A stretch of DNA of 64,000 nucleotides, taken from positions 1-64,000 of the IMG/VR virus record IMGVR_UViG_3300022221_000006, one strand, 5' to 3'. The notes beneath the pieces were generated by a model. That model had not been told where the DNA came from, made no database searches, and saw only the letters and a list, made by a program, of their open reading frames with translations. This DNA is from a virus. Made by a program: the position numbers and the translations under genes. This document shows positions 4,068 to 56,688 of this stretch, one piece after another. Numbering within the stretch: the stretch's first letter is position 1; each line of letters opens with the position of its first letter.

Positions 4068-4082
4068 CCCGTTAAATTAACC
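4068..4082 (+). promoter_or_regulatory. putative phage-RNAP late promoter (class L), upstream of terminase
   Basis: CCCGTTAAATTAACC, repeated at 20626 and 41843, immediately after a double terminator. Confidence 0.65.
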
Positions 4083-20625: not shown

Positions 20626-20646
20626 ACCCCGTTAAATTAACCCTGT
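20626..20646 (+). promoter_or_regulatory. putative late promoter (class L), upstream of scaffold/capsid
   Basis: ACCCCGTTAAATTAACCCTGT. Confidence 0.7.
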
Positions 20647-24488: not shown

Positions 24489-24519
24489 AGGGGATATCTT
24501 CGGGTATCCCCTTTTATTA
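24489..24519 (+). terminator. rho-independent terminator
   Basis: AGGGGATATC-TTCG-GGTATCCCCT-TTTATT. Confidence 0.8.
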
Positions 24520-25505: not shown

Positions 25506-25806
25506 AGTGTCAGGCGTATCGGAAACAATCCGAGATATACGTCAACAAATGAAAAGAGAAGCGGAAAGAGAGAAGAGGAAAGTCCTCAAAGCTCTTCTCC
25601 AAGACATTAAAGAAGAGAACCCTGTAGATACTGGTAAGTCACGAAACGGCTGGTATATACTAGGGAACTCTATACGAAACGATGTTGACTATGTCGAAGT
25701 CTTAAATAATGGTACAAGTACTCGCGAAGGTAGTCGTTTTGTGGAAAAAGCAGTTTTGAAAAACAGAAAAGTACGCCCTAGCGGTATTATTGTTAGAACT
25801 AAATAA
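25495..25806 (+). CDS. HK97 gp10-like tail completion/neck protein
   Basis: PVDTG.SR.GW...N.V.Y...LN.GTS motif. Confidence 0.8.
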   Translation: MIIKVSGVSETIRDIRQQMKREAEREKRKVLKALLQDIKEENPVDTGKSRNGWYILGNSIRNDVDYVEVLNNGTSTREGSRFVEKAVLKNRKVRPSGIIVRTK

Positions 25807-25812
25807 AGACAC

Positions 25813-25840
25813 AGCCCCACACAGCGTGGGGCTTTATTTT
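25813..25840 (+). terminator. rho-independent terminator
   Basis: AGCCCCAC-ACAGC-GTGGGGCT-TTATTTT. Confidence 0.7.
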
Positions 25841-25857
25841 AAACAGGAGACTTAGGT

Positions 25858-28800: not shown

Positions 28801-31800
28801 GGGATCATGGGTAAACTATATACCGTTGTCTCGGGTAAAGGGGGAGTTCTTTCCCAGTTGGTCTTCGGTAGACTAGGACCAACAGCTGGTATCGCAATGG
28901 TCTTAGGTGTCTTGGATATATTAGGAGCCTTTGATACATTATTTGAAGACTCCCCTTTGTTCCACTTAGCAGCACAGGGCGGTATCGTGGCTCTCATGTT
29001 AGGAGGTAATGGAGCAATCCAGTATGCGAAAAACTTTGCGATTGATAAAATCTTATCACCTATAGGTGACGCACTTCGTAGAGGGGCGATCAATATGGGG
29101 TTTGGTCAAATCCTTGCGAATGCGATGGTTACAGGCCAGGAAGGGTTTGTTGCCTCTACTCTTGCCTTTGTGACATCAGCGATTCAATCAGTAGGTTCCC
29201 GAATTGTAAGTTTTGTAGCACCTCTCGCTAGTAAAACATACGACTATTTACAGATACTGCTGTTAGGTCCTGATCCTGCTGCGACTATCGCAAAAATGAA
29301 ATTATACCTTATCGCAGCAATGGATTCAGGGAAAGCACTCTTGAGTGGGATTGGTGCCTTCTTATCGCCTCTATTAGCTAGTATGGGTTCTTTCTTTAAA
29401 GGATTAGGAGCACAAGTCTCTGGTTTGTTTTCCCAAGTGCAGACCGCCAGTGTGAGAGCAGCTTCCACAGCAACAAGTGTCGGTGGTCGTAACGGAATCT
29501 TTGGGAGAGTGATCTTCGGAGCTGCCGGTAGAACAGGTCTTGTCCTGGCCATCATTGCACTCTTGACACTTTTCAGCTCTTCAGCAAGTGCTGCTGATAA
29601 AGAAATTACAAACTTAGCAGGCAATAACCGTATTGGTCAGGCAGCTTCCTCCTTGAAGCAAGATTGGGAAGATATCCGCGACAACAATCCTCTGGCAGCT
29701 GCAGGTATTACAGCTCTAGGTGTGTTTACCACACTAGGTGTCTTCCTCGCGTATAAATTTAGACGTGATGTACTGACCTCTATGTTGAGTGCTTTTAACC
29801 CTAAAATTGCTTACAACTTCGGCTTTTCAAGTCTTAAAACAATCGCTAAAATCAAGTCGGCGATGCTGTCCTTGGGCCGTGTTATTGCAACATCTTTTGT
29901 TGCTTTTGAAGCAGGTTCTGCTATAGGTGAAGCTTTTGGAGGAGAAGAAGGAAGTATGATTGGGGGTACCATAGGTGTCCTCATCGCTGAAGGCCTGATA
30001 CGAGCCTTTGGAGGCACTTTCAAGAAGATCTTTTCATGGCGGTTAATATGGCCGATTATCACAGGAGCTTTTGCATTTATAGGTAAAGCACTGATAGGTC
30101 TTATCTTCTCTAAAATCGCAGCTGTTGTTTCTATTGTAGGTATTTTGGGTCTGCTCCTATTCGGAAAGAAAGGAGAGTTCTGGAATGATATTGGAAAGGC
30201 AATTCAATGGGTCAAAGAATTAATAGGGCTCAGTACAGAGGCTTCTAGAATAGATTCAAAGTCAGGGATTTCAAATGAAGCTCTTGGATTTGCAAACCTC
30301 AATCAGATAGATGTCGCTCATTCTTTAGAAGGTATCGACTTTGATAAGATAAGTGACCGTCAGACTGAACGACTGGAAGCAAAGCTTAATGAGGTGAATG
30401 ATGCAATTCTAGAAGCACAAGAGGAAGCTTCATTTACAAAGGATGGTAAGATTGTTGAAGATACAAAGAAATCTCTTGAGATACTCCTAAAGGGTACAAA
30501 GAACTATGTCGACAAACTAACAAGCCAGAGCCTTCCTAGCTATGATGAAATAGGTGCTGCCTTAGACTCTTTTAAGTTTACAAAGGAAGCAACCCTCTTC
30601 GATTCCATCCTCTTAAATTATCGCCAGGGAGCCTTAGATGTTCTCTATGGCTTAAAAGATGTCGCTATTTCTCTGAAGGGATTACCTGATGATATAGAGA
30701 AGCGTGAACGAGCAATTCTTGCAGACTCAAAGCTCACCAAGTTCAACGCTCGATTCGTTGATGATGATCCAATTCTGAATAGCATTATCAAGGCTCAGAA
30801 AGATTTCGGTGAACCAGGTAAAGATGCAAACATCACATCTGAAGAAGAACAGAAGTTAGTCGATCTCACAGCAGCATATATACGTAATTTGAAGATTGCT
30901 TCAGAAGAACGCATAGGACTGTTTGGGAACCGACAGGCATTCAATGTCGAGGCAGATAGTTATAAACAGATGGCCGAAAGCGCTGCTGTTTTAAACTCAG
31001 AATTCGCGAAGTTAAAGCGTCTCTCAGATCGCCGCAATGAAGTAGAAGCCTTCAATAAAGATATCAAGCAGATCAGCAATAATCTCTCACTTATTGGGAT
31101 TAATATAAAGACCTCTGAACTATTTGCCGAGGACTCTGATGCTCTAGACCGTGTACGTATATTAGGGCAGACCGCTCGAGATGTGACAGAGAATCTAAAG
31201 AATCTTGCAAGTGTTGAAGAGATGAGAGAATACCTTATCACACTTTCTAGTGTAAAGAAAGAGCTAGGGGAAATCAAAGAGCGAGCTGAGAATGCAGGTA
31301 AGTCAATGCAGACCATTGCTTTACAAAGTCTTGAGGGTCTAGGCGATAGTCTTTTCTCAGAGGAAACTGTTAGACGTCTTCCTGAAACACTTTCAAAGGC
31401 TATTACCGAGCTATCGCGTGAGTATAAGGATAACAGTGGATTTCTAGATCTTGAGTTCAGACCGGATGCCGTGAGTACTGCTAAGTTCAGACGAGACACT
31501 GAGCTGAAGATGCTCAATCTGAAGAAGTCTATACATGAAATAATGTTAGACCCTTCAAATATAGGTGGTGCCAAAGAGCTTGCCGAAGGTTTGGGTCTTG
31601 ACTTTGATTCGTTACTCAAGCACAAAGGTATTCCAGGCATTGTAGACGCTTTGTCAGACGTCCTTGCTCTGCAACACGATATCGATCTTTCAAAACTATT
31701 AGGTGATGGTGAAAAATATCGAGACGCCTCTCTAGCTCTGAAGAAATATATGGAGCTACTGACTAAGGCTCCTCAGACATTAGATACACTCTTGAGCGAT

Positions 31801-38100: not shown

Positions 38101-40816
38101 TGGATTACACATGTATGTGTCAAATAATGATGGTAGCATTTTTGAGTATGATCTGTCGGAACCTTTTGATGTTTCGTCTGCAACTTATACATCGAGAACT
38201 ATTAGATTCGCAACGACACTAGGAACGTCTCAATACACATCATTAGCCTTATCTCCTGATGGTAGTAAAATATTTGGAAACAATGCCAGTACTAAGAAAA
38301 TACACTCCTTTAGTTTTGGTACTAACTTTGATATCTCAACTCTTACAGAAGATGCAGGCTCTCTTAGTGTGCTTACCCAATTCGGAGCGAATGGCTTTAT
38401 TAACTATGTAATAAATAGTACAGGAACACGTGTATTTGCCCTCCATACATTGTCACCTTTCCGAATACATCAATACAATCTGAGTACTCCTTGGGATCTT
38501 TCAACAGGCGTTTACGCAGCTACTTATATAAGTGCTGTTACAAATACTACACAAGGTCTTGCGATTTCTAGTGACGACACTAAGTTATATGTCGGTGACA
38601 ATACGACCAAGACTATTTTAGAGCTTTCAATATCAGCTTCGGGAGATGTCACTACATGTTCTCTCACAGGTGCCGCTACTGATTTCTCGGATACAAATGT
38701 ATATGTTGTTGATTTTACATTTGCAAATGAAACACTGATTGTATGTGGTGCTGCTATCCCCTATTTTATATATCAGTATGCAAGTAGCATTGAGTGGGCG
38801 ACAGAAGACCCTGGTACTGAAGGTTCTTCGTGGATCACTGAAGCATCTTTCTCAAGGATGGGTAGCTATGGAATAAATACTAATACGCCTGCTTATTTAG
38901 CGCCTGTCTTAGCGCATAGTCCTGGTACGCAGGTAACGAAGCAGAGAGTCTATCAGTGGTCAACAGTAGCGCCTACTTTCCTTCCAAATGCCCAGACTAC
39001 TTATAACTGGCTGAATGGTACACAGGGAAATGCGACGAACATGGGCTCATGGACGTTGGGTGTCACAGCCAGTCCAGGAGGCGTCGGTATTAGATTATGG
39101 GTTGCTGAGATTTCTACATCAGCCCCGAATGGCACAGTCTCTACCACTCTCGCGTGGGATACAGGAAATCCAAATATATACGCAGGTGACATTACAAACT
39201 TACCCGATGGTAAGACACAGGTAGTATCTATTTACCGATGGGATACAGCTATTCCTACTATTGTAGGTTCCAGTACCTATACCTGGGAAACGGATATCCT
39301 TTCTGTAATTCCAACAGGCTGGTCAGATACGATACCTGCCACTGTTTCAGGCTATACACTATATGAAGCTCGTATTACACTTGTTGACATAAAAGAGGCT
39401 GTCACAACGTCTGTTGATTGGTCTGCTGCTAAACGTCTTGCAATCAACTATGCTGGTGGTGAAGGTATTAATGCTCGCCGCGCCTACGTGTCCACCGTTC
39501 AAATAAATTCAGATGAGTCATTAGTTCTGAGTTCCGGTACAGGCTCCCTACCAGATTCTGAGGCCTGGGATTTCACCGGTGTTACTTGGAGCGATACGTT
39601 ACCTACAGCAGGCGCTGGTGAAGTTGTTTACCAATCCGATGGAATGTACGATGAGAATACCACTAATGTGACATGGTCTCCCCCTTATGTTGCTGCTTTT
39701 AAAGTAGGTGATCTTAGTGCAATATCTGCTTCGATGGGTACCCTGAATGTAACTTCATCACTCACGATGCAAAATTCGGGTGTCATTAAGTCGGAAGATG
39801 CTACTTCTCTAGTTGCAGGCGCAGGTCTTTGGATGAGCGGTGGAACAAGTGCACAGTCTGAGTTTAGAGTAGGGGACCCAGCTGCTAGCAACTACTTAGC
39901 TTGGTCTCCTGCTCTAGGTGTGCAGGCAAGAGGTGCTGGACTCTCCATAAATGGAGCAGCCGGAGCGATATCTCTCAATGATGAAACCTTTGGAAATAAG
40001 GGGGTACAGCTTGAGTATAATGTAGGATCTCCTCGGATATATATCGGAAATGGCGAGGGTAGTTCTATCAGTTATGAAAATAATGCATTGACACTCGGCG
40101 CTGGCGTGCATATAGATGGCGCAGATTCCATATCAGCTGTTTCCAACTTCTATCGCTCACACGATTGCACTGACACTGTTGGTTGGGGTACTTTCTTAGG
40201 TGGACCGACTCTGACCCAGTTTGACTATGGTTGGAGAGTCACTATACCAAATACTGACACCGCAGAGTTCTGGGTCTACAACACGAGGCTTTTTCTAAAT
40301 AATACTGCACAATGGGGTAGTGACAGAAAAGTCTACTTTGATATAAGCCTCGCGCCTACTCCTACAGAACCTAATCTTCGAATGGAGATTGGCATGGGAT
40401 ATATGCGGACGAATGTCGTATATAGAAACGGAGTGTGGTTTTCCATAATCTATGATGATACCTCACCGATAGCGGTGCGAGGTGTGTGCTATAGATGGGG
40501 TGTTCCTACTTACACAGCAGCTATGCCTTTTGATATCATGGATCCATCGCGCAGTGATCGCATTCAATTTTTCATAGACTACAAGCCCTCGATCAACGTC
40601 TGCGACTTCTACATAAATGGTATCTATCAAGATTCTCTCCCAATGGGTAGCGGAGATAGACCTACTACTGAAAATAGCAGCGAGACATACATGGCCGGTC
40701 TTCGGACTTACAATGCAGGAACACTTACAGGACTTCTGAATCGAAATTTCTTCATTACCCAAATTAAATGGTGGGTTGCACTTACTGGAGGAGCTTTTGC
40801 TGGGTACCCTCGTTAA
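35153..40816 (+). CDS. tail tip / central fibre (gpJ-like host specificity protein)
   Basis: VYGR.K.GG, SNNPV..LLDYL...YG, LEPGDVI, FnIII-like and beta-propeller-like repeats, LSAISA.MG. Confidence 0.85.
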   Translation: MSVIAAVVGLSAYIGGATILTAVMLGASIKYQQYKQQKALDAMEAAADEAKGFEVVTEGEIDSVKLVYGRAKIGGTRVLHRLKSNYVYAAPALGGEVFVTEGDTRLASSVDSVPVLGTIKVISNTTSFNGAVDGTWDSDNETITQLTVSSEISRSSPTGPFTVTTEVGKAAIFGSAYVAVKIGHTPFDTYGDWSVEEGNAEEPIATVFNYRVDSYNNTTGLLTLKFHSATNPEYLSGTRTASLSANKNGSKNEFLFINQVICHKGISAVHSIDIDGRDFRHPDFGASGRIHVYRDGGIGDPMLNANITGQAASLFPETAYASMVFKLNRDEPQYRGIPEVVFYVDGFELSRIDESLGVYTKSSTKYSSNNPVYVLLDYLTAEYGRNLDISKIDLASFHAAAQLCEKQVDAGSLEDIDINGALWNEKVKTTGTRNIKLYECNLVLDTADDFRSNVNKILGSIPEAHFMWSDGTYKISLKYPEVWSAGTWPAGSIVQYETGGVIDLYRSTVSTIEVPGAGVEWETGPDPQLVSAYLTDDDIILENEITMSWPDLSSRLNYCTITFVNESKDFEKDTVSWPNRYGPGLTTVYDTYLAEDNGIELETSKSPHGITTEYHATAYAEMIVRKSRHAHVLGMTVTNEFMYLEPGDVIHLNSTELKVPSEIYLIDSLKVSAQGNIDIQLTKFDARILAWNAKDMEVVSKRSIYSGDLPQVTGLAYTPPAPGKATLTGGNLTWDPSTYKTALKYNAYIAGGPADIQDFNTVWEFLGSSTSNSLTMPPFTPGRYTLTVVAEALSGKVPPVYNLTTGSRWPLLTVDIADSLLGGNQFALTLYKYSTTDLTGTSVEGGSFDFTNHVTTPPVGYYVSEGVARENATDPLQPGDLYVSTAVASVNHPATIDISLAWTALELFDPKTTQKTIKFYARVPAAEPNPSAPSGGSYLFPEGPVTPPSSALASGSYTGKSFSVATQINGSPTDLASAIISVDGLHMYVSNNDGSIFEYDLSEPFDVSSATYTSRTIRFATTLGTSQYTSLALSPDGSKIFGNNASTKKIHSFSFGTNFDISTLTEDAGSLSVLTQFGANGFINYVINSTGTRVFALHTLSPFRIHQYNLSTPWDLSTGVYAATYISAVTNTTQGLAISSDDTKLYVGDNTTKTILELSISASGDVTTCSLTGAATDFSDTNVYVVDFTFANETLIVCGAAIPYFIYQYASSIEWATEDPGTEGSSWITEASFSRMGSYGINTNTPAYLAPVLAHSPGTQVTKQRVYQWSTVAPTFLPNAQTTYNWLNGTQGNATNMGSWTLGVTASPGGVGIRLWVAEISTSAPNGTVSTTLAWDTGNPNIYAGDITNLPDGKTQVVSIYRWDTAIPTIVGSSTYTWETDILSVIPTGWSDTIPATVSGYTLYEARITLVDIKEAVTTSVDWSAAKRLAINYAGGEGINARRAYVSTVQINSDESLVLSSGTGSLPDSEAWDFTGVTWSDTLPTAGAGEVVYQSDGMYDENTTNVTWSPPYVAAFKVGDLSAISASMGTLNVTSSLTMQNSGVIKSEDATSLVAGAGLWMSGGTSAQSEFRVGDPAASNYLAWSPALGVQARGAGLSINGAAGAISLNDETFGNKGVQLEYNVGSPRIYIGNGEGSSISYENNALTLGAGVHIDGADSISAVSNFYRSHDCTDTVGWGTFLGGPTLTQFDYGWRVTIPNTDTAEFWVYNTRLFLNNTAQWGSDRKVYFDISLAPTPTEPNLRMEIGMGYMRTNVVYRNGVWFSIIYDDTSPIAVRGVCYRWGVPTYTAAMPFDIMDPSRSDRIQFFIDYKPSINVCDFYINGIYQDSLPMGSGDRPTTENSSETYMAGLRTYNAGTLTGLLNRNFFITQIKWWVALTGGAFAGYPR

Positions 40817-40820
40817 CAAT

Positions 40821-40862
40821 TGCGCCATATGTGGTATCTTATATGAATAGGAATAATCCTAT
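40821..40862 (+). promoter_or_regulatory. putative phage-RNAP early promoter (class E), copy 1
   Basis: TGCGC-N7-GGTATCTTATATGAATAGGAATAATCCTAT; the 30-mer is identical at 42949 and 43365. Confidence 0.75.
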
Positions 40863-40884
40863 TATAATAATCAGGAGATACTCG

Positions 40885-41169
40885 ATGAAATATTTAATTA
40901 TAATAATAGCTCTACTAACAACCCCCGCGTTTGCCTGTAATTCTCATGATACTAATGGGTATATATGGATTGGGGCTGGACTTCATGACAGTCCACACGA
41001 TGTAGCATTTGGAAAAGAGATAGCAGAGTGGGGTGTGAGCTTCAATTTACACCAGATCAGTCCTATCAACAGCCTCCGTTTCATCCTTAAGCACGATTCA
41101 GGGATATGGACGAGGGAGAGAGACTATGGCTACAACACTGCAACCTTCAGGCTACAAGCTAACTTCTAA
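40885..41169 (+). CDS. small secreted beta-strand protein, putative outer-membrane protein
   Basis: GGAG RBS, signal peptide MKYLIIIIALLTTPAFA, H-x-S...G-x-N segment, C-terminal Phe. Confidence 0.65.
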   Translation: MKYLIIIIALLTTPAFACNSHDTNGYIWIGAGLHDSPHDVAFGKEIAEWGVSFNLHQISPINSLRFILKHDSGIWTRERDYGYNTATFRLQANF

Positions 41170-41717
41170 TGAAACTTTCAGAAATATCACGTAAAAAGTC
41201 ACTGGCACGGATCGTCAGTGGCTTCATGAACATGGATGTTCCCGTAAAGGAGCGTATAGAGTCTCTTGAGAGATACCTATGCACTCTCCCTCAACAAGAA
41301 GCACCAGTTGAAGAACTCTGGGGCAAAGATGTATATGTTCGGGAACTTATAATCCCTGCAGGTTCTTTTGTAATAGGGCGTATTCACAAATATGATCATG
41401 TAAGTATTATGATCGAAGGCGAACTTTTAATGTGGACAGAATTCGACGAGACAATACACTTAAGTGGCTACAATAAAGTCATTGCAAAAGCAGGTATTAA
41501 ACGAGTCGGTTATGTTCTACAAGAAACGAAATGGATTACCGCTCACGGTGTCACCGAGACAGACAACTTTAAAAACCCCGTCGAGGCTTTAACCGTTGCA
41601 ACATATGGAGAGTATAGCACATTCAAGGATGCTGAGATGGTATGCATCGAGGGCAACTCCATAGAACAAAACCTGAGTCTGCCGGTGTCAAAATCGGTCT
41701 CCAGAACGCCAGACTAG
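41169..41717 (+). CDS. cupin-fold protein
   Basis: YVREL.IPAG...GRIHKYDH.....G; AG.KR.GY....W.T.H. Confidence 0.7.
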   Translation: MKLSEISRKKSLARIVSGFMNMDVPVKERIESLERYLCTLPQQEAPVEELWGKDVYVRELIIPAGSFVIGRIHKYDHVSIMIEGELLMWTEFDETIHLSGYNKVIAKAGIKRVGYVLQETKWITAHGVTETDNFKNPVEALTVATYGEYSTFKDAEMVCIEGNSIEQNLSLPVSKSVSRTPD

Positions 41718-41842
41718 CACCACGATCTCAGGGTCACCCTTATGGGAGTGTGCCTGAAAAAACGACAGCAGAGACGGCCAGTCTGGAAGCCGTCCTCAAA
41801 AAATCCTTTAGAATCAAGGGGTTAGGGCGGTCGTCACCTCAG

Positions 41843-41863
41843 ACCCCGTTAAATTATCCCTGT
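41843..41863 (+). promoter_or_regulatory. putative late promoter (class L), upstream of lysis genes
   Basis: ACCCCGTTAAATTATCCCTGT, 20/21 identical to the 20626 copy. Confidence 0.7.
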
Positions 41864-42028
41864 AGGCTCCCCCGTAATGTAGTATTTATAACTCCCTATC
41901 ACCACTGTTGTAAATCTATAACAATAAAGGATTAAAGAATAGAATAAGGATATCCCCTCAAGACCTTCTCTAAAGAGGTCACTCAATAGTCCCTAGGGCT
42001 AACTAAAATATAAATAAAGAGGTATATC

Positions 42029-42565
42029 ATGGTTCCAATTGTAGCAGGTCTTCTAAAAGGAGGACTCTCGCTTGTCGCAAATGCATTTCTTGCAAAAGGT
42101 AAGGAATGGGTCGAAGAGAAAGCGGGTATCACTCTCGATCCTAAAGAACCACTCTCAGAAGAGCAGTTGGTTGCTCTACGAAAGTTTGAGATGGATAATG
42201 AAGTGGAATTGCGTAAGCTACAAATTGAAGATAATCGTCTCGCAAAAGAAATCGACGAGATGTATCTAAAAGACACTCAGAGCGCACGTCAAATGCAGAT
42301 GACGGCGTTAGAACAAGACGACGTATTCGCTAAGCGTTTCGTTTATTACTTTGCATCTTTTTGGTCACTAGGCGCTGCTATATACATTGCAGCTATAACT
42401 TTTATGGCAATCCCAGAGGCAAATACTCGCTTTGCTGACACAATATTGGGCTTTCTCTTGGGTACAATTGTCGCCCAGATCATCTCATACTTCTATGGTT
42501 CTAGCAAATCATCACAGAATAAGGATAAACTGAAAGATGAGATGCTGAAGAAGGTATTGAAATGA
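42029..42565 (+). CDS. holin (GTA 3-TM holin-like)
   Basis: D..SAR.MQ, two C-terminal TM segments, YFYGSS; adjacent to endolysin. Confidence 0.75.
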   Translation: MVPIVAGLLKGGLSLVANAFLAKGKEWVEEKAGITLDPKEPLSEEQLVALRKFEMDNEVELRKLQIEDNRLAKEIDEMYLKDTQSARQMQMTALEQDDVFAKRFVYYFASFWSLGAAIYIAAITFMAIPEANTRFADTILGFLLGTIVAQIISYFYGSSKSSQNKDKLKDEMLKKVLK

Positions 42566-42891
42566 GGCTTGGTCAACACCAGGAAGCATTTTTCAGAGAC
42601 CTCCTCAAACTGGGTATCCACGCATTATCCCTGGGATATGAGATACGTGGCGGCGAATTACAACGCCCAATAGAGATGCAAGAGCTCTATATTAAGATGG
42701 GACGCTCTAAGACGATGCGGAGTGAGCATCTCAACAAGTGTGCGATAGATCTTTATTTCACGAAGAAAGGTAAGCTTGTGTATCCCGAGGAACTCGGACG
42801 ATACTGGGAGAGCCTTGACACTCGAAATTCAGCAGGGATGTTCTGGAAGTCTTTCAAAGACGGACCTCATTATCAACGTTCAACCCGATAG
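42562..42891 (+). CDS. endolysin, M15-family peptidase (L-Ala-D-Glu peptidase-like)
   Basis: R...Q..., SEH....AIDL, DGPHYQ zinc-peptidase motifs. Confidence 0.85.
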   Translation: MRLGQHQEAFFRDLLKLGIHALSLGYEIRGGELQRPIEMQELYIKMGRSKTMRSEHLNKCAIDLYFTKKGKLVYPEELGRYWESLDTRNSAGMFWKSFKDGPHYQRSTR

Positions 42892-42899
42892 TACCGATG

Positions 42900-42931
42900 A
42901 CCCCTTATGTTCTTAGGAATATAGGGGGTTT
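42900..42931 (+). terminator. terminator at the end of the late/lysis unit
   Basis: ACCCCTTATGTTC-TTAG-GAATATAGGGGGT-TT. Confidence 0.65.
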
Positions 42932-42936
42932 AAAAC

Positions 42937-42978
42937 TGCGCAAAAATGGGTATCTTATATGAATAGGAATAATCCTAT
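42937..42978 (+). promoter_or_regulatory. putative early promoter (class E), copy 2
   Basis: TGCGC-N7-GGTATCTTATATGAATAGGAATAATCCTAT, then CACAACAA..GAGGT RBS. Confidence 0.75.
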
Positions 42979-42999
42979 CACAACAACTGAGGTAATATT

Positions 43000-43311
43000 A
43001 TGAACAAGCAATTTGCAGAAATGATCGAAAAAAGTCTTTCAGGTTTTAGTAAGTACGGTTTGGAGGCGTTGGCAAAACGTAAGCTGACGGCTTCGGATAT
43101 CCTTGCGAGAGCTACAAAACGGGTTGTCTCACGGGAAGATGAAGAGTATTACGTTCTTGTACGTAGTCCTACGAACGACCAGATAAAAGCCCGTATTACT
43201 GACCGCACACGGGTAGGTGATTTGGAAGGTATAATCGATGGTCTGCTGGACCGACTTAATGACAGTATGGAAACTGACATCCACGGCAAGAAGCCAAAAG
43301 CTAAAGCCTAG
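43000..43311 (+). CDS. putative early protein, hypothetical
   Basis: GAGGT RBS directly after a class E motif. Confidence 0.7.
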   Translation: MNKQFAEMIEKSLSGFSKYGLEALAKRKLTASDILARATKRVVSREDEEYYVLVRSPTNDQIKARITDRTRVGDLEGIIDGLLDRLNDSMETDIHGKKPKAKA

Positions 43312-43352
43312 TAATTGCTCTACTGTACGGGGTGTAAAAACCCCGTATGAAC

Positions 43353-43394
43353 TGCGCAAAAACAGGTATCTTATATGAATAGGAATAATCCTAT
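43353..43394 (+). promoter_or_regulatory. putative early promoter (class E), copy 3
   Basis: same motif, preceded by hairpin TACGGGG...CCCCGTA. Confidence 0.75.
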
Positions 43395-43415
43395 CACAAC
43401 AAACGAGGTAACACT

Positions 43416-43706
43416 ATGAAAAATCAAGAAGTATTAAAGAAAATCCCAGAAGCCATCCTTTGGTATTTAAAGACAATGCTCGTAAATATGCTGATGCTTT
43501 TATGCGGAATCTTTCTTGTGTATGAAATTCAGCTTTTGATCCTCTATCCGATCTTAATTGCACAAGCTTTTATGTATGCTGCTTTCTTCGCAGCTATAAT
43601 GACTGCTGGTCAATATATAGCTGCTAGTGTATATGAGTGGGTCAGCCGCTGTAAATATGATCGTGAGCATGGTATCATCAACGGCAAATGCCAGGCGGCT
43701 GTCTAA
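43416..43706 (+). CDS. putative early membrane protein
   Basis: GAGGT RBS, two TM segments. Confidence 0.65.
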   Translation: MKNQEVLKKIPEAILWYLKTMLVNMLMLLCGIFLVYEIQLLILYPILIAQAFMYAAFFAAIMTAGQYIAASVYEWVSRCKYDREHGIINGKCQAAV

Positions 43707-43873
43707 TGTTTAGTCTAGCAACGATCGCATTGATAGTGAGCGGTATAAGTCTTATCACATCAGTCTTTGTAGTCCCTTATGTGATTGTTTCTTTCTTTAT
43801 TAAGCTTGTACTTATTGCCATGGTCTTCGGGCTGGTGATGTATGCTATTAAGAGAGCTTTCGCAAACAGGTAA
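43706..43873 (+). CDS. small membrane protein
   Basis: TAATG overlap, highly hydrophobic 55 aa. Confidence 0.55.
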   Translation: MFSLATIALIVSGISLITSVFVVPYVIVSFFIKLVLIAMVFGLVMYAIKRAFANR

Positions 43874-43904
43874 TCAACAAATCTTTTTTCGAAGGAGGAA
43901 AGGT

Positions 43905-44309
43905 ATGTCATCAACAATTGTAGCAATCCCAGGGTACTTCTGTATAAGTGATAAATATCCAACATCTCTGGGAAATATCAACTTGAGCTTCGAACACTAT
44001 GCAGAAGGTGTTCAGCGGCTCGATTTAGCAGGGCTTGAACCTGTAGAAGTGACGTCGATTTGGAATCATGAAAAGAAACCAATGAGACGCCGGTGGGGTG
44101 GATTTGTATTCAACCTTCAAGTCTTTGGTGTGATTGATACAAAGGCGAAATCAAAAGAGAAACCTGCGTCAAAACAGGGGAATCAAAAGACGGAACAAAC
44201 GAAAACAACAAAAGGGTCTCTTATCCCATTCTTTGTGGAAAAAAGAATATATGATTATATCGTACAACAAACCAACTATGCGAGACCTGCGGATGTAATA
44301 AGATTATAG
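43905..44309 (+). CDS. hypothetical protein
   Basis: AGGAGG RBS before ATG 43905. Confidence 0.65.
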   Translation: MSSTIVAIPGYFCISDKYPTSLGNINLSFEHYAEGVQRLDLAGLEPVEVTSIWNHEKKPMRRRWGGFVFNLQVFGVIDTKAKSKEKPASKQGNQKTEQTKTTKGSLIPFFVEKRIYDYIVQQTNYARPADVIRL

Positions 44310-44366
44310 CTGCTACCCCATATGACACCTTCGGGTGTTGTATGGGGGCGTGTAGCTTTATTTTTT
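44308..44366 (+). terminator. rho-independent terminator
   Basis: CCCCATATGACACC-TTCG-GGTGTTGTATGGGG...TTTATTTTTT. Confidence 0.75.
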
Positions 44367-44380
44367 CTTCCGGAGGAACA

Positions 44381-44515
44381 ATGGCTTCAACAAAGCTCAA
44401 AATCGTTCACTATGTTTTAATATTTAGTGTATTAGCCTTATTTTCAAAGCTGCGCCCTGAGACAATGCTTGTCGGTGCAATCGCGATCTACCTCTATCAG
44501 AAGGTAACTTCATGA
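44381..44515 (+). CDS. small membrane protein (44 aa, not in ORF track)
   Basis: GGAGG RBS; MASTKLKIVHYVLIFSVLALF... Confidence 0.5.
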   Translation: MASTKLKIVHYVLIFSVLALFSKLRPETMLVGAIAIYLYQKVTS

Positions 44516-44581
44516 TAAAATTTATAGTGGGTCTATATTTGATATCGTTAATCCCAAAGGTTATTGAGAAAATTGAAAGCT

Positions 44582-46837
44582 ATGATAAAACAAAAGATAA
44601 TTCTGACAACAACAAAAAGGATAGCAAAGGAAATTGCACCACAAAACCCCCTAATATATCTAAAAGAACATGATGTCGAAAAGTATATTAATGAATTAAT
44701 CTCGACAGTCTATCTGTTCACACGCCCTAAGAAGGGTTCATCGGACCCTCTCTATATGGTTGAAATTATATCGGCTATCGGACATCGGGTCAGAGGAAAG
44801 TTAGGACTTAGAAAAGACTCAGCGTTAGCAGCTAAAACAGGAGCGTTTCTTTTATATACATTCGAAGTACTTAATATCATCCATGTTATCCTTGGAGCTG
44901 GTAGACGTGGACATAATGCGTACATTGTAGATGTTTTGGACGATGCTACGATAAATGAACTATGGAAGGAGCTAGGTGACCGCGAGATCGAGAAGTTACC
45001 TGCGCTACAGCCGCATCAGGATTGGAAGCATTCAAGGCATCCTACAGGAATGCTTATGGTAAAAACAGGATGTAAAGAGACACTTGAATCACTAACACCT
45101 CAAACACATCCTATCGTCTTCAACGTCCTGAACAGAGCTCAACAAGTAGGTTGGCGAATAAATACGGAGATTCATCACTTACAACAATGGGCACTAAAGT
45201 ACAAAACAGTCGCCTTTGCAGATATATGGGAACAACAAAACCCTGAAGCGCGTGCTACAAAATTAAGAGAGGCTCGATCTATTGACTCGATTGCGAGTAA
45301 ATACCTAGGGACAACCTTCTATCATCTCTATTACTATGACTTCAGAGGTCGTAAGTATGCAGCCACTGCTTATCTACACGAACAAGGAAGTGATGTAGCG
45401 AAAGGTCTCTTGCTCAGAGATGATAAGAAGCGAATAGGAAAAGAAGGATTTTTCTGGCTACTTGTGAGTATCGCCTCTAACTGGGGCGGTGAGAGTGGTC
45501 GTGAAGATGGATTGAAAACAGATAAAATACCTCTTGAAGAAAGGTATCAATGGGCGCTCGCAAATGAGGATATTTTATTGTCCTACGCGAAATCACCTAA
45601 AGTGAATCAGGGATGGATGAAAGCTGATAAGCCCTGGCAATTTATAGCAGCGTGTTTTGAGCTAAGGTCTTGTTACCGATGGGCTAAGTATGACCATACT
45701 AAGCATGATCACCTAAAGGAGGAAATCTATGAATATGAGTCTCATCTTGAGTGCTTTATTGATGGTAGTAACAATGGCTCTCAGCATCTATGTGCGCTTA
45801 CACGCGACGAAGTTACGGCTCCTCACGTTAATCTTGTGCCACTTGATTATCCTGGGGACCTCTATAAATATGTTGCAGATCATGTTTGGGACAGCTTAGA
45901 GGCTCAAGTTAATCTCCTGACAGAAGCTGAAGTTGAAATTTGTGAAAAGTTCATAGATGATCTGGTCGTGCACAAAAAGCGAATAAACAGTGCGCCCCGT
46001 GGTAGCGAAATCAAAAGGCTCCTTGTGGATAAGATACGAAAGTTTAAGGAGGAACATGGACTTTTAATGGTGCTTGTAGCTCCTGTATTTTGGTTTAGAA
46101 TCCAGGATGCTAAGGAGAAACGTAAGATTGTGAAGAGAAACACAATGACGCTTCCCTATGGCGGAACACCCTATGGACTTGGACAACAGATCATTGATGA
46201 TGCTAAGAAACATGGGATTGAACAACTCCTATATATGGAACATAGCTGGGGCGCTTTCTTAGGAAGAGAAGTATTTAAAAACTGCCAGGAAGCTCTTAAA
46301 CGACCTATGCAACTCCTTGATATCTTTGAGAAGGCAGGGAAGCTAGCAGAAGCCGAAGAGAGATTCTTAAAATGGACTGTACCAATAACAAACTTCCCGG
46401 TAGTGCAGCACTACACGGAAGGTCGTGTGAAGAAGATATGGGTTCAGTACGGACCGCCTAAAGGAACCAGAAATTCAACAGGTTACTTTACAAACACCTT
46501 ACAATTGCATATTTGCTTTGTAGAAGATCCACAACCATCGAAGCGCAAACAAGCACAGGGAGCTTCTCCTAATGCCATTCACAGCCTAGATGCAGCACAC
46601 TTAATGCTTACAGTAGATGAGGCACCTTTTCCAATAACAACTGTTCATGATTCTTTTGGATGTTTGTTAGCTGATATGCCTGAACTGTACAAACTAATAC
46701 GTGAAACATTCGTAGAACTCCATGAGGTCAATCCACTCTATTCATTGTTTGAACAGATAGGAGGCGACATCTCAGACGTTGATCTGGGGAATCTTGATAT
46801 CAATTTGATACTTGATTCAGAATATTGTTTTTCATAG
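44582..46837 (+). CDS. T7-like single-subunit DNA-directed RNA polymerase (stand-alone)
   Basis: DFRGRKY, KPWQF.A, motif A DGSNNGSQH, motif B RKIVKRNTMTLPYG, PNAIHSLDAAHL, motif C VHDSFG. Confidence 0.95.
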   Translation: MIKQKIILTTTKRIAKEIAPQNPLIYLKEHDVEKYINELISTVYLFTRPKKGSSDPLYMVEIISAIGHRVRGKLGLRKDSALAAKTGAFLLYTFEVLNIIHVILGAGRRGHNAYIVDVLDDATINELWKELGDREIEKLPALQPHQDWKHSRHPTGMLMVKTGCKETLESLTPQTHPIVFNVLNRAQQVGWRINTEIHHLQQWALKYKTVAFADIWEQQNPEARATKLREARSIDSIASKYLGTTFYHLYYYDFRGRKYAATAYLHEQGSDVAKGLLLRDDKKRIGKEGFFWLLVSIASNWGGESGREDGLKTDKIPLEERYQWALANEDILLSYAKSPKVNQGWMKADKPWQFIAACFELRSCYRWAKYDHTKHDHLKEEIYEYESHLECFIDGSNNGSQHLCALTRDEVTAPHVNLVPLDYPGDLYKYVADHVWDSLEAQVNLLTEAEVEICEKFIDDLVVHKKRINSAPRGSEIKRLLVDKIRKFKEEHGLLMVLVAPVFWFRIQDAKEKRKIVKRNTMTLPYGGTPYGLGQQIIDDAKKHGIEQLLYMEHSWGAFLGREVFKNCQEALKRPMQLLDIFEKAGKLAEAEERFLKWTVPITNFPVVQHYTEGRVKKIWVQYGPPKGTRNSTGYFTNTLQLHICFVEDPQPSKRKQAQGASPNAIHSLDAAHLMLTVDEAPFPITTVHDSFGCLLADMPELYKLIRETFVELHEVNPLYSLFEQIGGDISDVDLGNLDINLILDSEYCFS

Positions 46838-48337: not shown

Positions 48338-48397
48338 ATGCCTGCTAAAATACATACTGTAAAATGCACCTAAAAGGCATGCCGGAATCGTAACCGG
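48338..48397 (+). repeat. intergenic two-hairpin motif, copy 1
   Basis: ATGCC...GGCAT-G-CCGG AATCGTAA CCGG. Confidence 0.6.
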
Positions 48398-49131: not shown

Positions 49132-51137
49132 TGTTCAGACTGGTTTTTGATATTGAAGGCGATGGGTTCCTAAGAGATGTAACACGGATGTGGACGATCA
49201 TTATCCATAACTTAACCACAGGCGAGCGCGTGGAATTCCTTGAGAATGACCTAGGCTGGCAGGATTATTTTAATAATAATGTGGGGATTGTAGTTGGGCA
49301 TAACATTTTAGGATATGATGTTCCTGTCCTAGAAAAACTCTTTGGGTATAAATTCCCAAAAGAAACTCAATTTCATGACACGCTTTTGATGTCACAGATT
49401 CTTGACTACCGGCGATTCGGCTACCAAGGGCACTCACTAGCGGTGTGGGGTAAATCACTAAATTATCCAAAAATTGACTTCCACGACTTCTCAAAATGGA
49501 CTCCTGAGATGTCTAAGTATTGTCACCAAGACGTAAATCTTAACGTTGAGGTGTATAAAATTCTAATACAAGAATATTATGATTTGTTTGACAAACTTGA
49601 GAAAGATGAGGGAACAGGTCATAGAATAAAAACATTTCTTCAGGCTGAACATGCTGCCACTACTTGGCAAGCTCAGGCTGAATTGCACGGCTGGCCCTTC
49701 GACAAAGAAGGAGCTATTGAACTCTTCGGTAAGTTAGAGGAGGAACTGACTGAAATTCGGGATAAATTAGAAGGAGTCTTAGGCTCAAAGTCAATTGCAA
49801 TCGACAAGGTAAAAGGAATTGTGCCTCACAAAGAACCTAAGTGGGTTGCTACAGGGTACTATCATGCACATACTGCGCAGTGGTTTGGTATCGATCCTCG
49901 CTGCGGTTCTGATCTTTCTACAAAAGAGGCTCGTATGATCATAGCCTCCGGCGAATATGAGGAGGAAGATGAAATAATGAAGATGGCTCAGGCTATCCTG
50001 ACGCATGGTGAGCGACCGATTACAGGCCCGTATTGTAGAGTAGACTTCCAGAAACTAAAGTTAAGCTCTGTCGCAGATGTTAAAATTTATCTATATCGAC
50101 ATGGATGGGAACCCTCCGAATGGAACACTAAATGGAATCCTGCTACTAAAAAGAATGAAAACACTTCACCTAAAATCATTGATGACGATCTCGATCTTTT
50201 AGGCGAAAACGGAAGGTTGTATCGAGCCTTTACAACAGCAGAATCTCGATACAGTATAGTAAAAACATGGATTGAAAACGTTGATGACAATGGAATGCTT
50301 CATGGAAACTCAAGGATGATAGGAACGCCGAGTATGCGCGCTACACACCAGATCATTGTAAATGTACCCTCTGGAGAGCTTAAGGATGATGGAACTCCTG
50401 TTAGTAAATGGGGTCCTGAGATGAGAGCCTTGTTTAGGTCAAAGCCAGGCTGGAAATGCATAGGATGTGATTCAAAAGGCAACCAGGCGCGAGGTCTCGC
50501 ACACTATCTAGGAGATCAGGAGTTTATAGACGTAATCCTGCACGGTGATATTCATGCATACAACGCCGTTAAATTAACCGAAGCATTGTCGAAGATGGGT
50601 GTACAGCACACGGTACCAAGAAGTGCCGCAAAGAGAATCCTGTATGCCTTCCTATTTGGAGCTTCAGGTAAGAAGCTGTGGAGCTATATATTTGGCACCT
50701 TCAATGCAACTAAAGGAAATAAGTTAAAAAAGGAGTTTATTAAAGCAGTACCTGGGTTTGAAGACCTTAACAAAAAGCTGGAGAATATCTATGGAAGCAC
50801 CTCAAAGTTTGGATACGGCTACATTCCTTCAATGGTTGGTAATAGAATTTATGTTGATTCTTTTCATAAACTTCTTGTATATTTACTACAATCCCTTGAA
50901 AAGATTACATGTAGCACTGCGGTTATGCTCACTATGCAGCGTCTGGAGGAAGAAAGTATTCCATACATCCCTCTCATCTACTATCATGATGAGGAGGATT
51001 TCATGGTACCAGAAGAATTTGCAGAACGTGCAGCTGAAATAGGTTCAGGCGCCTTCAAGGATGCGGCGCTCCTATATGATATCAAAATAATGGATGGTGA
51101 TGCAAAGATCGGCGACAGCTGGCTAGATATTCATTAA
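49131..51137 (+). CDS. family A DNA polymerase (T7 gp5-like)
   Basis: ExoI FDIE, ExoII GHNILGYD, ExoIII YCHQDV; motif A GCDSKGNQAR, motif B RSAAKRILYAFLFG, motif C YHDE. Confidence 0.95.
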   Translation: MFRLVFDIEGDGFLRDVTRMWTIIIHNLTTGERVEFLENDLGWQDYFNNNVGIVVGHNILGYDVPVLEKLFGYKFPKETQFHDTLLMSQILDYRRFGYQGHSLAVWGKSLNYPKIDFHDFSKWTPEMSKYCHQDVNLNVEVYKILIQEYYDLFDKLEKDEGTGHRIKTFLQAEHAATTWQAQAELHGWPFDKEGAIELFGKLEEELTEIRDKLEGVLGSKSIAIDKVKGIVPHKEPKWVATGYYHAHTAQWFGIDPRCGSDLSTKEARMIIASGEYEEEDEIMKMAQAILTHGERPITGPYCRVDFQKLKLSSVADVKIYLYRHGWEPSEWNTKWNPATKKNENTSPKIIDDDLDLLGENGRLYRAFTTAESRYSIVKTWIENVDDNGMLHGNSRMIGTPSMRATHQIIVNVPSGELKDDGTPVSKWGPEMRALFRSKPGWKCIGCDSKGNQARGLAHYLGDQEFIDVILHGDIHAYNAVKLTEALSKMGVQHTVPRSAAKRILYAFLFGASGKKLWSYIFGTFNATKGNKLKKEFIKAVPGFEDLNKKLENIYGSTSKFGYGYIPSMVGNRIYVDSFHKLLVYLLQSLEKITCSTAVMLTMQRLEEESIPYIPLIYYHDEEDFMVPEEFAERAAEIGSGAFKDAALLYDIKIMDGDAKIGDSWLDIH

Positions 51138-51488: not shown

Positions 51489-51522
51489 CTATCGCTAGCA
51501 ACGATGCCGGAAAAGTAACCGT
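51489..51522 (+). repeat. intergenic two-hairpin motif, copy 2
   Basis: CTATCGCTAGCAACGATGCCGGAAAAGTAACCGT. Confidence 0.6.
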
Positions 51523-51676: not shown

Positions 51677-51721
51677 GATGTCTAGAAAATCCCGCGCTGA
51701 CATCCCGGATAACGTAACCGG
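51677..51721 (+). repeat. intergenic two-hairpin motif, copy 3
   Basis: GATGTC...GACATC-CCGG ATAACGTAA CCGG. Confidence 0.6.
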
Positions 51722-51756
51722 GGCTAATCAATTATACAATCCGTATGGAGAGCATT

Positions 51757-56369: not shown

Positions 56370-56403
56370 CTATCGCTCGCATCGATCCCGGAAAAGTAAC
56401 CGG
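56370..56403 (+). repeat. intergenic two-hairpin motif, copy 4
   Basis: CTATCGCTCGCATCGATCCCGGAAAAGTAACCGG, 30/34 identical to copy 2. Confidence 0.65.
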
Positions 56404-56688
56404 AGTCTCTGACTTAGAGACAGACCACGTCCTAATAAAATGGGAGAATAAAATGTGAATCAGGGGAGGACTGCGGCCTAGATGTCCGTAGATAGCCGTT
56501 TTTAAGATAGTAGGCGAACAATAAAAACAAGAGACCTGTTGAGGTTTCGATAATATGACTTCGAGTCTGCAGCAACTAGGCAGATCAAGTACGTATTTTC
56601 AACTGTGAAAGAAGCCTCCTTCTGGTCGATGTCTGCTAGCGGCATTCAGAAGGAGGTTGTATTAACTTAAAATAAATAGGAGCGTACG

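Follow-up and report, generated by a model that had tools for sequence, protein, structure and literature searches.

This locus raises the question of what reads three identical DNA elements that stand in front of genes in a long-tailed phage. The window, meaning the whole 64-kb stretch of DNA analyzed here, belongs to a complete siphophage genome of 74 kb. The 30-mer GGTATCTTATATGAATAGGAATAATCCTAT occurs in it exactly three times (40833-40862, 42949-42978, and 43365-43394), always on the plus strand and with 0 mismatches, and it appeared 0 times in 100 dinucleotide shuffles of the sequence, none being expected by chance. TGCGC lies exactly 7 nt 5' of every 30-mer, and the seven intervening bases (CATATGT, AAAAATG, and AAAAACA) are copy specific. 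We refer to the whole arrangement as E and to its copies as E1, E2, and E3 (Table 1).

All three copies are intergenic. E1 begins 5 nt past the stop codon of a 1887-aa tail gene, E2 comes after an M15 endolysin gene, and E3 comes after a 103-aa ORF. Downstream of every copy come a Shine-Dalgarno (SD) sequence and then an ATG located 39-40 nt past the G of ATGA. The original prediction had described the identical copies, the fixed TGCGC spacing with a variable spacer, the position just before a ribosome-binding site, the hairpins ahead of two copies, and the inverted repeat ATAGGA-ATAA-TCCTAT, and all of these held when they were checked. The repeat folds at -5.2 to -7.1 kcal/mol across the three copies. 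Unlike E2 and E3, E1 has no strong hairpin on its 5' side.

Table 1. Features of the E locus and related elements in window coordinates
Feature	Position	Strand	Remarks
Class-2 motif, further copies	4068-4082, 20626-20642, 68034		Last one outside the window
MuF minor head protein fused to complete single-subunit RNA polymerase	16002-20621	+	Proposed reader of E
E1 promoter proper (putative)	40821-40846	+	TGCGC 40821-40825, variable spacer, core GTATCTTATATGA 40834-40846, probable +1 G 40845; PWM of 66 related sites
E1 dyad	40847-40862	+	Read as transcript 5' stem-loop; one extra pair in E1; -7.1 kcal/mol; relatives' hairpins anchored at the same G
E1-headed genes	40885-41717	+	94-aa lipoprotein (lipobox AFAC) and 182-aa protein matching PHROG short tail fibre/adhesin families
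Class-2 motif	41843-41857	+	5' of holin-like and endolysin genes; contrasting, probable middle/late promoter class
Strong hairpin after endolysin gene, then TTT	42899-42930	+	Directly 5' of E2; -20.7 kcal/mol, z -5.2; candidate terminator insulating early unit from late lysis unit
E2 promoter proper (putative)	42937-42962	+	TGCGC 42937-42941, core 42950-42962, probable +1 G 42961; dyad 42963-42978
E2/E3-headed small genes (103, 96, 61, 155, and 57 aa)	43000-44515	+	No database matches; resemble typical early genes
Hairpin without T-run	43325-43348	+	Directly 5' of E3; -15.8 kcal/mol, z -4.6
E3 promoter proper (putative)	43353-43378	+	TGCGC 43353-43357, core 43366-43378, probable +1 G 43377; dyad 43379-43394
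T7-like RNA polymerase gene, 757 aa	44564-46837	+	PF00940, E 1.5e-67; 3' of the E copies, no class-2 motif between

No further copy of the 30-mer was found in the 3.0-Mb assembly, and the exact 30-mer had no match in IMG/VR, where the 5' half alone is conserved among relatives. Megablast of positions 40000-44500 against cultured phages gave no match, and neither Rfam families nor tRNAs were found in the window.

A scan of the genome and its relatives, proposed beforehand as a check, recovered the core together with GCG in about 36 related loci. These IMG/VR phage loci were retrieved by way of the T7-like polymerase (41-68% identity), and 66 sites from 36 of them were compiled into a PWM. The 5' half of E is nearly invariant in them, consisting of GCG, an N9 spacer, and then GTATCTTATATGA, and 73 of the 76 matches to the 13-mer core have GCG at the fixed distance. 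The PWM holds 42.7 bits and is invariant at -23 to -21 and -9 to +1 relative to the G of ATGA. The conserved part reads T-GCG-(G/C), an A-tract, two to three free positions, GTATC, the AT-only stretch TTATAT, and finally G(+1)A(+2). The sequence of the dyad half is not kept in the relatives, while the core is unchanged among phages of 31-63% GC. The remaining 390 contigs of the assembly (2.96 Mb) lack it, and the single matches among 185,579 species genomes were at about chance level.

Each genome carries 2-4 copies of E, two to three of them in the interval that runs from the lysis genes to the T7-like polymerase gene. None was found on the minus strand in 13 complete or near-complete genomes, E being intergenic and co-oriented with the genes. 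An SD sequence, start codon, and ORF follow within 150 nt at 60 of 65 sites, and only 1 of 65 sites lies inside a frame that is open through the preceding 100 codons. The genes 3' of E are small and are not common to different phages. In many relatives, a strong hairpin with a T-run precedes the first copy and divides the lysis genes from E.

That E is intergenic, strand specific, adjacent to hairpins, and just 5' of ribosome-binding sites would also suit a site of RNA processing or an operator for a DNA-binding protein between genes. However, a terminator-like hairpin lies directly 5' of many copies, so that upstream transcripts would often exclude the E site, and the absence of an Rfam match argues in the same direction. 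The only operator-like part is the dyad, and since its sequence is not conserved among the relatives, the repressor operator considered in the original prediction fits poorly. Without E, moreover, no conserved start signal would be left for the early genes or the polymerase gene. We regard a non-promoter role as very unlikely.

Among the 10-mers common to five complete genomes, there are only two multi-copy families, E and a second conserved motif, CCCGTTAAATTAACC, termed class 2, which heads replication, structural, and lysis genes. Class-2 sites follow the MuF-polymerase gene (5' of the capsid genes) and also precede the terminase gene and the holin and endolysin genes. Relatives have an extra copy about 1 kb 3' of the T7-like polymerase gene, which is missing in this phage. 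In a clade with 41-45% polymerase identity, E is unchanged and class 2 has drifted. We also considered covariation of the class-2 variants with the free polymerase, which was uninformative as several variants coexist within one phage. A two-hairpin element in the replication block was dropped as a third, family-wide site of the packaged enzyme, being present only in this phage and one relative.

Stable folds pair the conserved G itself at 18 of 66 E sites, compared with 2.4 ± 1.4 (maximum 7) in shuffles, and the count of anchored hairpins along the offsets peaks at this G. Hairpins anchored at the same G so far above the shuffles indicate that the G is probably the 5' end of the transcript. 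TTATAT followed by GA places an AT-rich segment directly before a purine, the putative start being located from the hairpins anchored at the G. Transcription most likely starts at the G of ATGA. Depending on the test used, a hairpin is present in the +3 to +18 region at 18/66 to 28/66 E sites (approximately 27-40%). The same kind of anchored hairpin is found at 25 of 54 class-2 sites, which suggests that such hairpins belong to the transcripts in general. The dyad of E is therefore probably a 5' RNA stem-loop outside promoter recognition, and the functional promoter would be linear duplex DNA from about -24 to +2, judging from its conservation. By analogy with T7-type promoters, the polymerase may bind at GCG, the A-tract, and GTATC (-11 to -7), and TTATAT may be where the duplex melts.

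This arrangement bears on the two promoter types put forward in the original prediction. In phage N4, the promoters contain, within their conserved -17 to +1 region, an inverted repeat centred at -11 with a 5-7-bp stem and a 3-nt loop, and they require supercoiling and SSB (PMC4496689). Extrusion of the ATAGGA/TCCTAT dyad as a DNA hairpin recognized by the packaged polymerase would agree with the location of the three copies where the early region begins and ahead of a second polymerase gene, an arrangement also seen in N4 P1-P3, and with the presence of the dyad in all three. The conserved block of E, from -24 to +2, contains no conserved dyad, however; the repeat lies downstream of it at +3 to +18 with a 4-nt loop, is not conserved in sequence, is absent from about half of the sites, and has counterparts at class-2 sites. 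A promoter of the N4 type is thus extremely unlikely. The comparison instead favours the other type, an SP6/T7-like promoter starting at the G of GAATAGG and giving a 5' RNA hairpin, as the conserved sequence is linear and variable hairpins begin at the same G.

The phage encodes two polymerases, one fused to MuF and one free (757 aa), which are both of the T7 type and very different from each other. Polymerase motifs A, B, and C are invariant in the MuF fusion, whose polymerase part covers about residues 660-1539. Its predicted structure (pLDDT 80.7) has T7 and mitochondrial RNA polymerases as the best structural matches (E approximately 1e-15), which points to an intact T7-type fold for the polymerase part, while a sequence search against PDB returned nothing useful. 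The fusion is present in 9 of 9 complete relatives. Pelagibacter phage Kolga, which has a related polymerase, a MuF protein without polymerase domain, and no E-like site, carries little weight as a single distant genome. Both polymerases are present in the cultured roseophage DSS3_VP1, its MuF-polymerase having the locus tag DSS3VP1_00028. Searches for related loci starting from the DSS3_VP1 polymerase and from a distant MuF-polymerase (P0014) returned only their own record or a fragment. Uracil-containing DNA (dU-DNA) was dropped as a reason for a packaged polymerase after a homologue of the DSS3_VP1 dCTP deaminase was not found in this phage.

DSS3_VP1 has a diverged version of E, GCATCTATAATGA, with two copies preceded by GTGAGAAAA; the G of the motif falls at about 35820 and 36267 of the phage record. 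This unannotated motif, found in the roseophages DSS3_VP1 and DSS3_PM1 of the Naomviridae, matches E at 9 of 13 core bases and has an upstream G-N-G-A-AAAA element, but differs at four core positions and in the upstream element. In DSS3_VP1, it lies upstream of genes that run toward the polymerase gene, and in one copy a hairpin is anchored at this G as well. Taken together, these features make GCATCTATAATGA a homologue of E. The published papers on DSS3_VP1 and DSS3_PM1 do not discuss promoters or polymerases.

The number of motif families matches the number of phage polymerases. No class-2 site with up to two mismatches lies between E and the T7-like polymerase gene, and with a hairpin and T-run upstream, this implies that the free polymerase gene depends on E, in which case the reader of E must be present at time zero. 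The most economical inference assigns E to the virion RNA polymerase.

Host sigma-70 RNA polymerase might instead read E as an early promoter, as it does T7 A1-A3, leaving the packaged polymerase with another role or other sites. E has the early position and the two to three tandem copies of such promoters, E1 contains TTAACA-16-TATCTT with TG before the second hexamer (a match at chance level), the DSS3_VP1 version holds a perfect TATAAT, and one relative (L042) has TTGACA-17-TATATG. That E is more strongly conserved than class 2 would also suit a reader whose evolution is not tied to that of the phage. Against this, the PWM of the E family has no -35 signal in any register. Only one register is spaced 16-17 nt from TTGCGG, and in it the last base of the -10 element, a critical T, falls where just 37% of sites have T; no single register keeps A2 and T6 of the -10 element in both the E family and DSS3_VP1. 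As no sigma-70 register fits the conservation, the host -10 element (TATCTT) considered in the original prediction also fits poorly. An uninterrupted run of thirteen invariant bases and a total of about 43 bits are more than sigma-70 recognition needs, E is unchanged over phages of 31-63% GC and absent from the rest of the assembly, and sigma-70-like sites are not enriched in 40500-44700 (13 versus 10.4 ± 3.5 expected). A universally conserved packaged polymerase would furthermore be left without a conserved promoter. Reading by the host enzyme is accordingly unlikely, although it keeps a small share of our expectation.

The free T7-like polymerase might also read E, autoregulating its gene or serving a middle class, with the packaged enzyme reading class 2 or other sites. 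E does resemble a T7-type promoter in its AT-rich stretch followed by G and in its identical copies, and some relatives have extra E copies in the replication block, one of them directly 3' of a class-2 site. This reading meets a bootstrapping problem, as E is the only conserved signal ahead of the polymerase's own gene, which a terminator-like hairpin separates from the late unit upstream. Class 2 heads capsid, terminase, and lysis genes, and an injected enzyme would have no reason to target these. Class 2 has CCCGT(T)AA in common with ATTGGGCACCCGTAA, the promoter defined biochemically for the T7-like polymerase of Syn5, a short resemblance only (PMC3950665). We consider this assignment quite unlikely, at roughly one chance in ten.

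It is fairly probable, in our view, that E serves as an early duplex promoter of the T7 type, with the injected MuF-polymerase as its reader and mRNAs bearing a 5' stem-loop as its products. A large family of siphophages of about 70-80 kb with two T7-type polymerases would have E as its early promoter class. The MuF-fused polymerase is the most likely reader of E and would be packaged and leave the capsid together with the DNA. It would transcribe a handful of small early genes along with the gene of the free T7-like polymerase, and this second enzyme would then read CCCGTTAAATTAACC ahead of the replication, structural, and lysis genes. The leaders would be short (median 39 nt) and often open with a stem-loop, and the ATAGGA/TCCTAT stem-loop of this phage probably protects the mRNA 5' end.

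More broadly, and with an assurance only a little better than even, E may be the cis element of a virion-polymerase system that is the second of its kind and evolved independently. In this system, an injected MuF-fused T7-type polymerase with an unusually long duplex (non-hairpin) promoter would open a transcription programme without host polymerase in hundreds of uncultured siphophages and in Naomviridae, on hosts with a GC content of 31-63%. If confirmed, E would be the cis half of a polymerase-promoter pair that has no description in the literature searched, in which we found no paper on the two-polymerase system; an Endozoicomonas phage preprint is silent on E and class-2 promoters. It would also represent the second kind of capsid-delivered single-subunit polymerase after that of N4, with an ordinary duplex promoter. 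The motif, 13 invariant bases and GCG at a fixed distance, is sharp enough to locate early regions and likely transcript starts across hundreds of uncultured phage genomes, and the polymerase-promoter pair could be an orthogonal transcription tool. The first reading of the dyad is corrected as well, the dyad probably being a transcript feature common to both promoter classes and not a recognition element. DSS3_VP1 on Ruegeria pomeroyi offers a cultured system in which the question becomes testable, as does in vitro transcription from a short template.

Long, near-invariant contiguous sequences with identical copies in a genome are typical of the duplex promoters of T7, T3, SP6, and Syn5. E also shares with them the co-orientation with genes. 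Its AT-only stretch stands just before a G that is the probable start, and many of its transcripts would open with a 5' stem-loop, as the T7 phi10 leader does. The sequence of E is nevertheless unrelated to theirs, and it has a separate GCG element and a free gap of 2-3 nt. A point against E as a T7-type promoter is that its conserved block reaches -24 and ends at about +2 to +5, extending further upstream than known T7-type promoters, which span -17 to +6 (PMC4496689). Those promoters serve middle or late classes, whereas E is proposed to serve the early class.

T7 A1, A2, and A3 resemble E in number, position, and tandem arrangement in front of small takeover genes and the gene of the phage polymerase, but they are ordinary sigma-70 promoters, whereas E is off the -35/-10 pattern and carries far more information. 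A parallel in organization is N4 P1-P3 with gp50, where few copies at the start of the early region, a T7-type reader delivered from the capsid (proposed here for E), and a second polymerase driven from these promoters form a polymerase relay. In N4, the carrier is the 3,500-aa gp50 of a podophage and the late genes fall to the host enzyme, whereas here the carrier would be a MuF head-protein fusion of a siphophage and the late genes apparently fall to the second phage polymerase.

Two RNA polymerases are encoded by this phage. Its contig of 74,179 bp, of which the window forms the first 64 kb, has ends overlapping by 134 bp, so the genome is complete, at about 74,045 bp. It has a GC content of 42.4% versus 48.7% in the assembly it was binned with, and was probably binned with an unrelated or unproven host. 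Every gene lies on one strand, and the phage is a siphophage (tape measure protein of 2573 aa) with a family A DNA polymerase, a ribonucleotide reductase, a separate 757-aa T7-like polymerase (the free polymerase), and a 1539-aa protein in which MuF head-morphogenesis and RNA polymerase domains are fused (the MuF fusion). In the MuF fusion the catalytic motifs of T7-type enzymes are retained within the final 880 residues; across an alignment of 25 homologues, D349 of motif A, K415, Y423, and G424 of motif B, and D779 of motif C never vary. The predicted polymerase structure (pLDDT 80.7) matches, along its entire length, those of T7 and mitochondrial RNA polymerases (E about 1e-15).

The nearest cultured relatives are the Naomviridae roseophages DSS3_VP1 and DSS3_PM1, with 34.5% identity for the free polymerase and 29% for the MuF fusion, and the partial genome of EBPR siphovirus 1 encodes a MuF fusion that is 58% identical. 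Whole-genome comparison gave about 24 proteins in common with DSS3_VP1, which has dU-DNA; a search of this phage for the dCTP deaminase of DSS3_VP1 gave no hit at E 1e-5, and replacement of thymine is accordingly not indicated. The MuF-polymerase gene is broken at about residue 1080 in some relatives, G004 and G007 (loci L080, L084, and L085), and in EBPR siphovirus 1 an HNH endonuclease gene separates its two halves.

Three identical 30-mers had been reported for the early motif E, and exactly three were found in the window (E1 to E3), on the + strand and without mismatch, with no occurrence in 100 dinucleotide-preserving shuffles. The anatomy originally described was borne out as well: TGCGC lies 7 nt upstream of all three copies with a spacer that differs among them, all are intergenic with a Shine-Dalgarno sequence and ATG 39-40 nt past the G of ATGA, and E2 and E3 follow strong hairpins (-20.7 kcal/mol, z -5.2, and -15.8 kcal/mol, z -4.6). 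The inverted repeat (dyad) in the 3' half of E folds weakly (-5.2 to -7.1 kcal/mol). E1 is displaced compared with relatives: the insert that it heads, with genes for a lipoprotein and a 182-aa protein, separates the tail genes from a lysis unit driven by class 2, the second conserved motif of this phage family. An early lipoprotein beside tail genes is reminiscent of Llp, the superinfection-exclusion protein of T5.

Positions of features in this phage and its relatives
Feature	Record	Positions	Remark
E 30-mer (E1, E2, E3)	window	40833, 42949, 43365	
E1 insert	window	40885-41717	94-aa lipoprotein (lipobox AFAC); 182-aa protein with matches to PHROG short tail fibre / adhesin families
Class-2 match	window	50566-50579	14 nt, within DNA polymerase gene
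Two-hairpin element, four copies	window	48382-48397, 51507-51522, 51705-51722, 56388-56404	second hairpin CCGG-A..GTAA-CCGG
Intrinsic-terminator-like element	window	24489-24515	AGGGGATATC-TTCG-GGTATCCCCT then TTTT, after structural gene
Word CAGGGGATATC(T/C), again	window	8851, 33485, 51635	
Variant E core, (C/T)CATCTTATATGA	L042	6117-6157, 8463-8503	TTGAC ahead
HNH endonuclease gene and flanking MuF-polymerase halves	L075 (EBPR siphovirus 1)	25771-31144	

Beyond the window the motif stood only in part, as the 30-mer has no further copy in the whole 3.0-Mb assembly but its 5' half recurs in relatives. Among 70 IMG/VR loci coding for relatives of the free polymerase, only this half, GTATCTTATATGA, recurs in those of 41-68% identity, with GCG at a fixed upstream distance in 73 of 76 core matches and always on the coding strand. 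A position weight matrix from 66 distinct sites in 36 loci, with the G of ATGA counted as +1, holds 42.7 bits: no variation occurs in GCG (-23 to -21) or across -9 to +1, and almost none at the G of -11; an A-tract spans -19 to -15, -14 and -13 are free, and +2 is A in 94% of sites. Complete relatives carry 2-4 copies and none on the opposite strand. An RBS and ORF follow within 150 nt at 60 of 65 sites (median leader 39 nt), and only one of the 65 lies within a frame open across the preceding 100 codons. The downstream ORFs are small and unrelated from phage to phage, as is usual for early genes.

Reading of E by the host polymerase, to which the original prediction allowed a -10 element (TATCTT), finds no -35 signal 16-18 nt upstream of TATCTT in the matrix, and no sigma-70 register fits. 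If TTGCGG is taken as the -35, the -10 becomes TATGA(A/T), whose critical last T just 37% of sites possess, and GTATCT, which is invariant, ends up in the spacer. Sigma-70-like sites are not enriched in 40500-44700 (13 found, 10.4 expected), the E core does not occur in the remaining 2.96 Mb of the assembly, and its 54 single matches in 596 Gb of prokaryotic genomes are about chance level by estimate. The core is also identical across phages whose GC content runs from 31% to 63% and whose hosts must be very different. DSS3_VP1 carries a diverged E, GCATCTATAATGA, with GTGAGAAAA ahead of two copies upstream of genes leading to the polymerase gene, and at least 10 copies of an altered class 2, GGGTGCGTTAAAGAGG; therefore both classes changed between the two phage groups, which is what signals read by phage enzymes should show. 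In no -10 register are both critical bases retained by the E family as well as by DSS3_VP1. A passable host-type arrangement does exist in E1, the DSS3_VP1 version, and the relative L042, and in the most distant clade class 2 is less conserved than E, but on balance a host reader appears unlikely. The variant E of L042 gives TTGACA-17-TATATG, possibly a dual host/phage promoter.

Five complete genomes have only 24 10-mers in common, and the only multi-copy families among them are E and class 2, CCCGTTAAATTAACC. The gene map of both classes is the same in every genome compared, with class 2 immediately downstream of the MuF-polymerase gene, ahead of the capsid genes, and again ahead of the terminase gene and of the holin-like and endolysin genes, and E between the endolysin and free polymerase genes. 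No class-2 site (≤2 mismatches) occurs between E and the free polymerase gene, and at roughly one site per phage a GC-rich hairpin with a T-run lies between the lysis genes and the first E; the free polymerase therefore needs E for its expression, and the reader of E must be present when the DNA enters. This makes it quite improbable that the free polymerase itself reads E. Moreover, CCCGT(T)AA is common to class 2 and the promoter defined for the T7-like polymerase of Syn5 (PMC3950665), a weak hint that class 2 may be the target of the free polymerase.

By elimination, E is left to the MuF fusion, which was found in all nine complete relatives checked, and we favor with reasonable confidence an early duplex promoter that starts at the G and is read by the injected MuF fusion. 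That E is something other than a promoter we consider very unlikely. The fusion would enter with the DNA and transcribe from E, yielding the free polymerase, which may in turn read class 2.

Relatives have a further class-2 copy about 1 kb past the free polymerase gene, ahead of the replication genes, which this phage lacks. It may be replaced by a two-hairpin element, in which the second hairpin agrees with class 2 at about 12 of 15 positions. Similar copies occur in the early region of locus L043 (genome G008); with none in a further three complete relatives, the element is not a signal of the whole family. The class-2 match in the DNA polymerase gene may be due to chance or may act as an internal promoter.

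The dyad sequence is not conserved in relatives, where many sites have a different hairpin at the same place. The stem starts exactly at the conserved G in 22 of the 39 E sites folding at -3 kcal/mol or better in a 36-nt window, and the hairpin count is maximal at the offset of this G. In a stricter 30-nt test the G is paired in 18 of 66 sites, compared with 2.4 +/- 1.4 (maximum 7) in shuffles keeping the first four bases, which favors the predicted option of a start at G with a 5' RNA hairpin. One DSS3_VP1 copy of GCATCTATAATGA has a hairpin anchored at the same G, and class-2 sites have a stem anchored at their terminal CC in 25 of 54 cases; the hairpin is thus a frequent transcript feature of both classes. 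Judged from these folds, the anchored hairpin probably marks the 5' end of the transcript, and a protective 5' stem-loop is its best reading.

The Naomviridae papers make no mention of promoters or polymerases; new here are the limits, probable start site, and reinterpreted dyad of the early motif, and its testing against host-type and N4-type promoters. According to a survey of packaged multidomain proteins, N4-kind virion polymerases occur only in N4-like phages, and the MuF-polymerase fusion is absent from its list (PMC5512222). An N4-type hairpin promoter had been the other option offered for E, and is barely tenable given the unconserved dyad and the anchored stems of both classes. The dyad was rejected as a promoter hairpin of this kind, since the N4 hairpin sits upstream of +1, centred at -11 within the conserved block (PMC4496689), whereas the dyad of E lies at +3 to +18.
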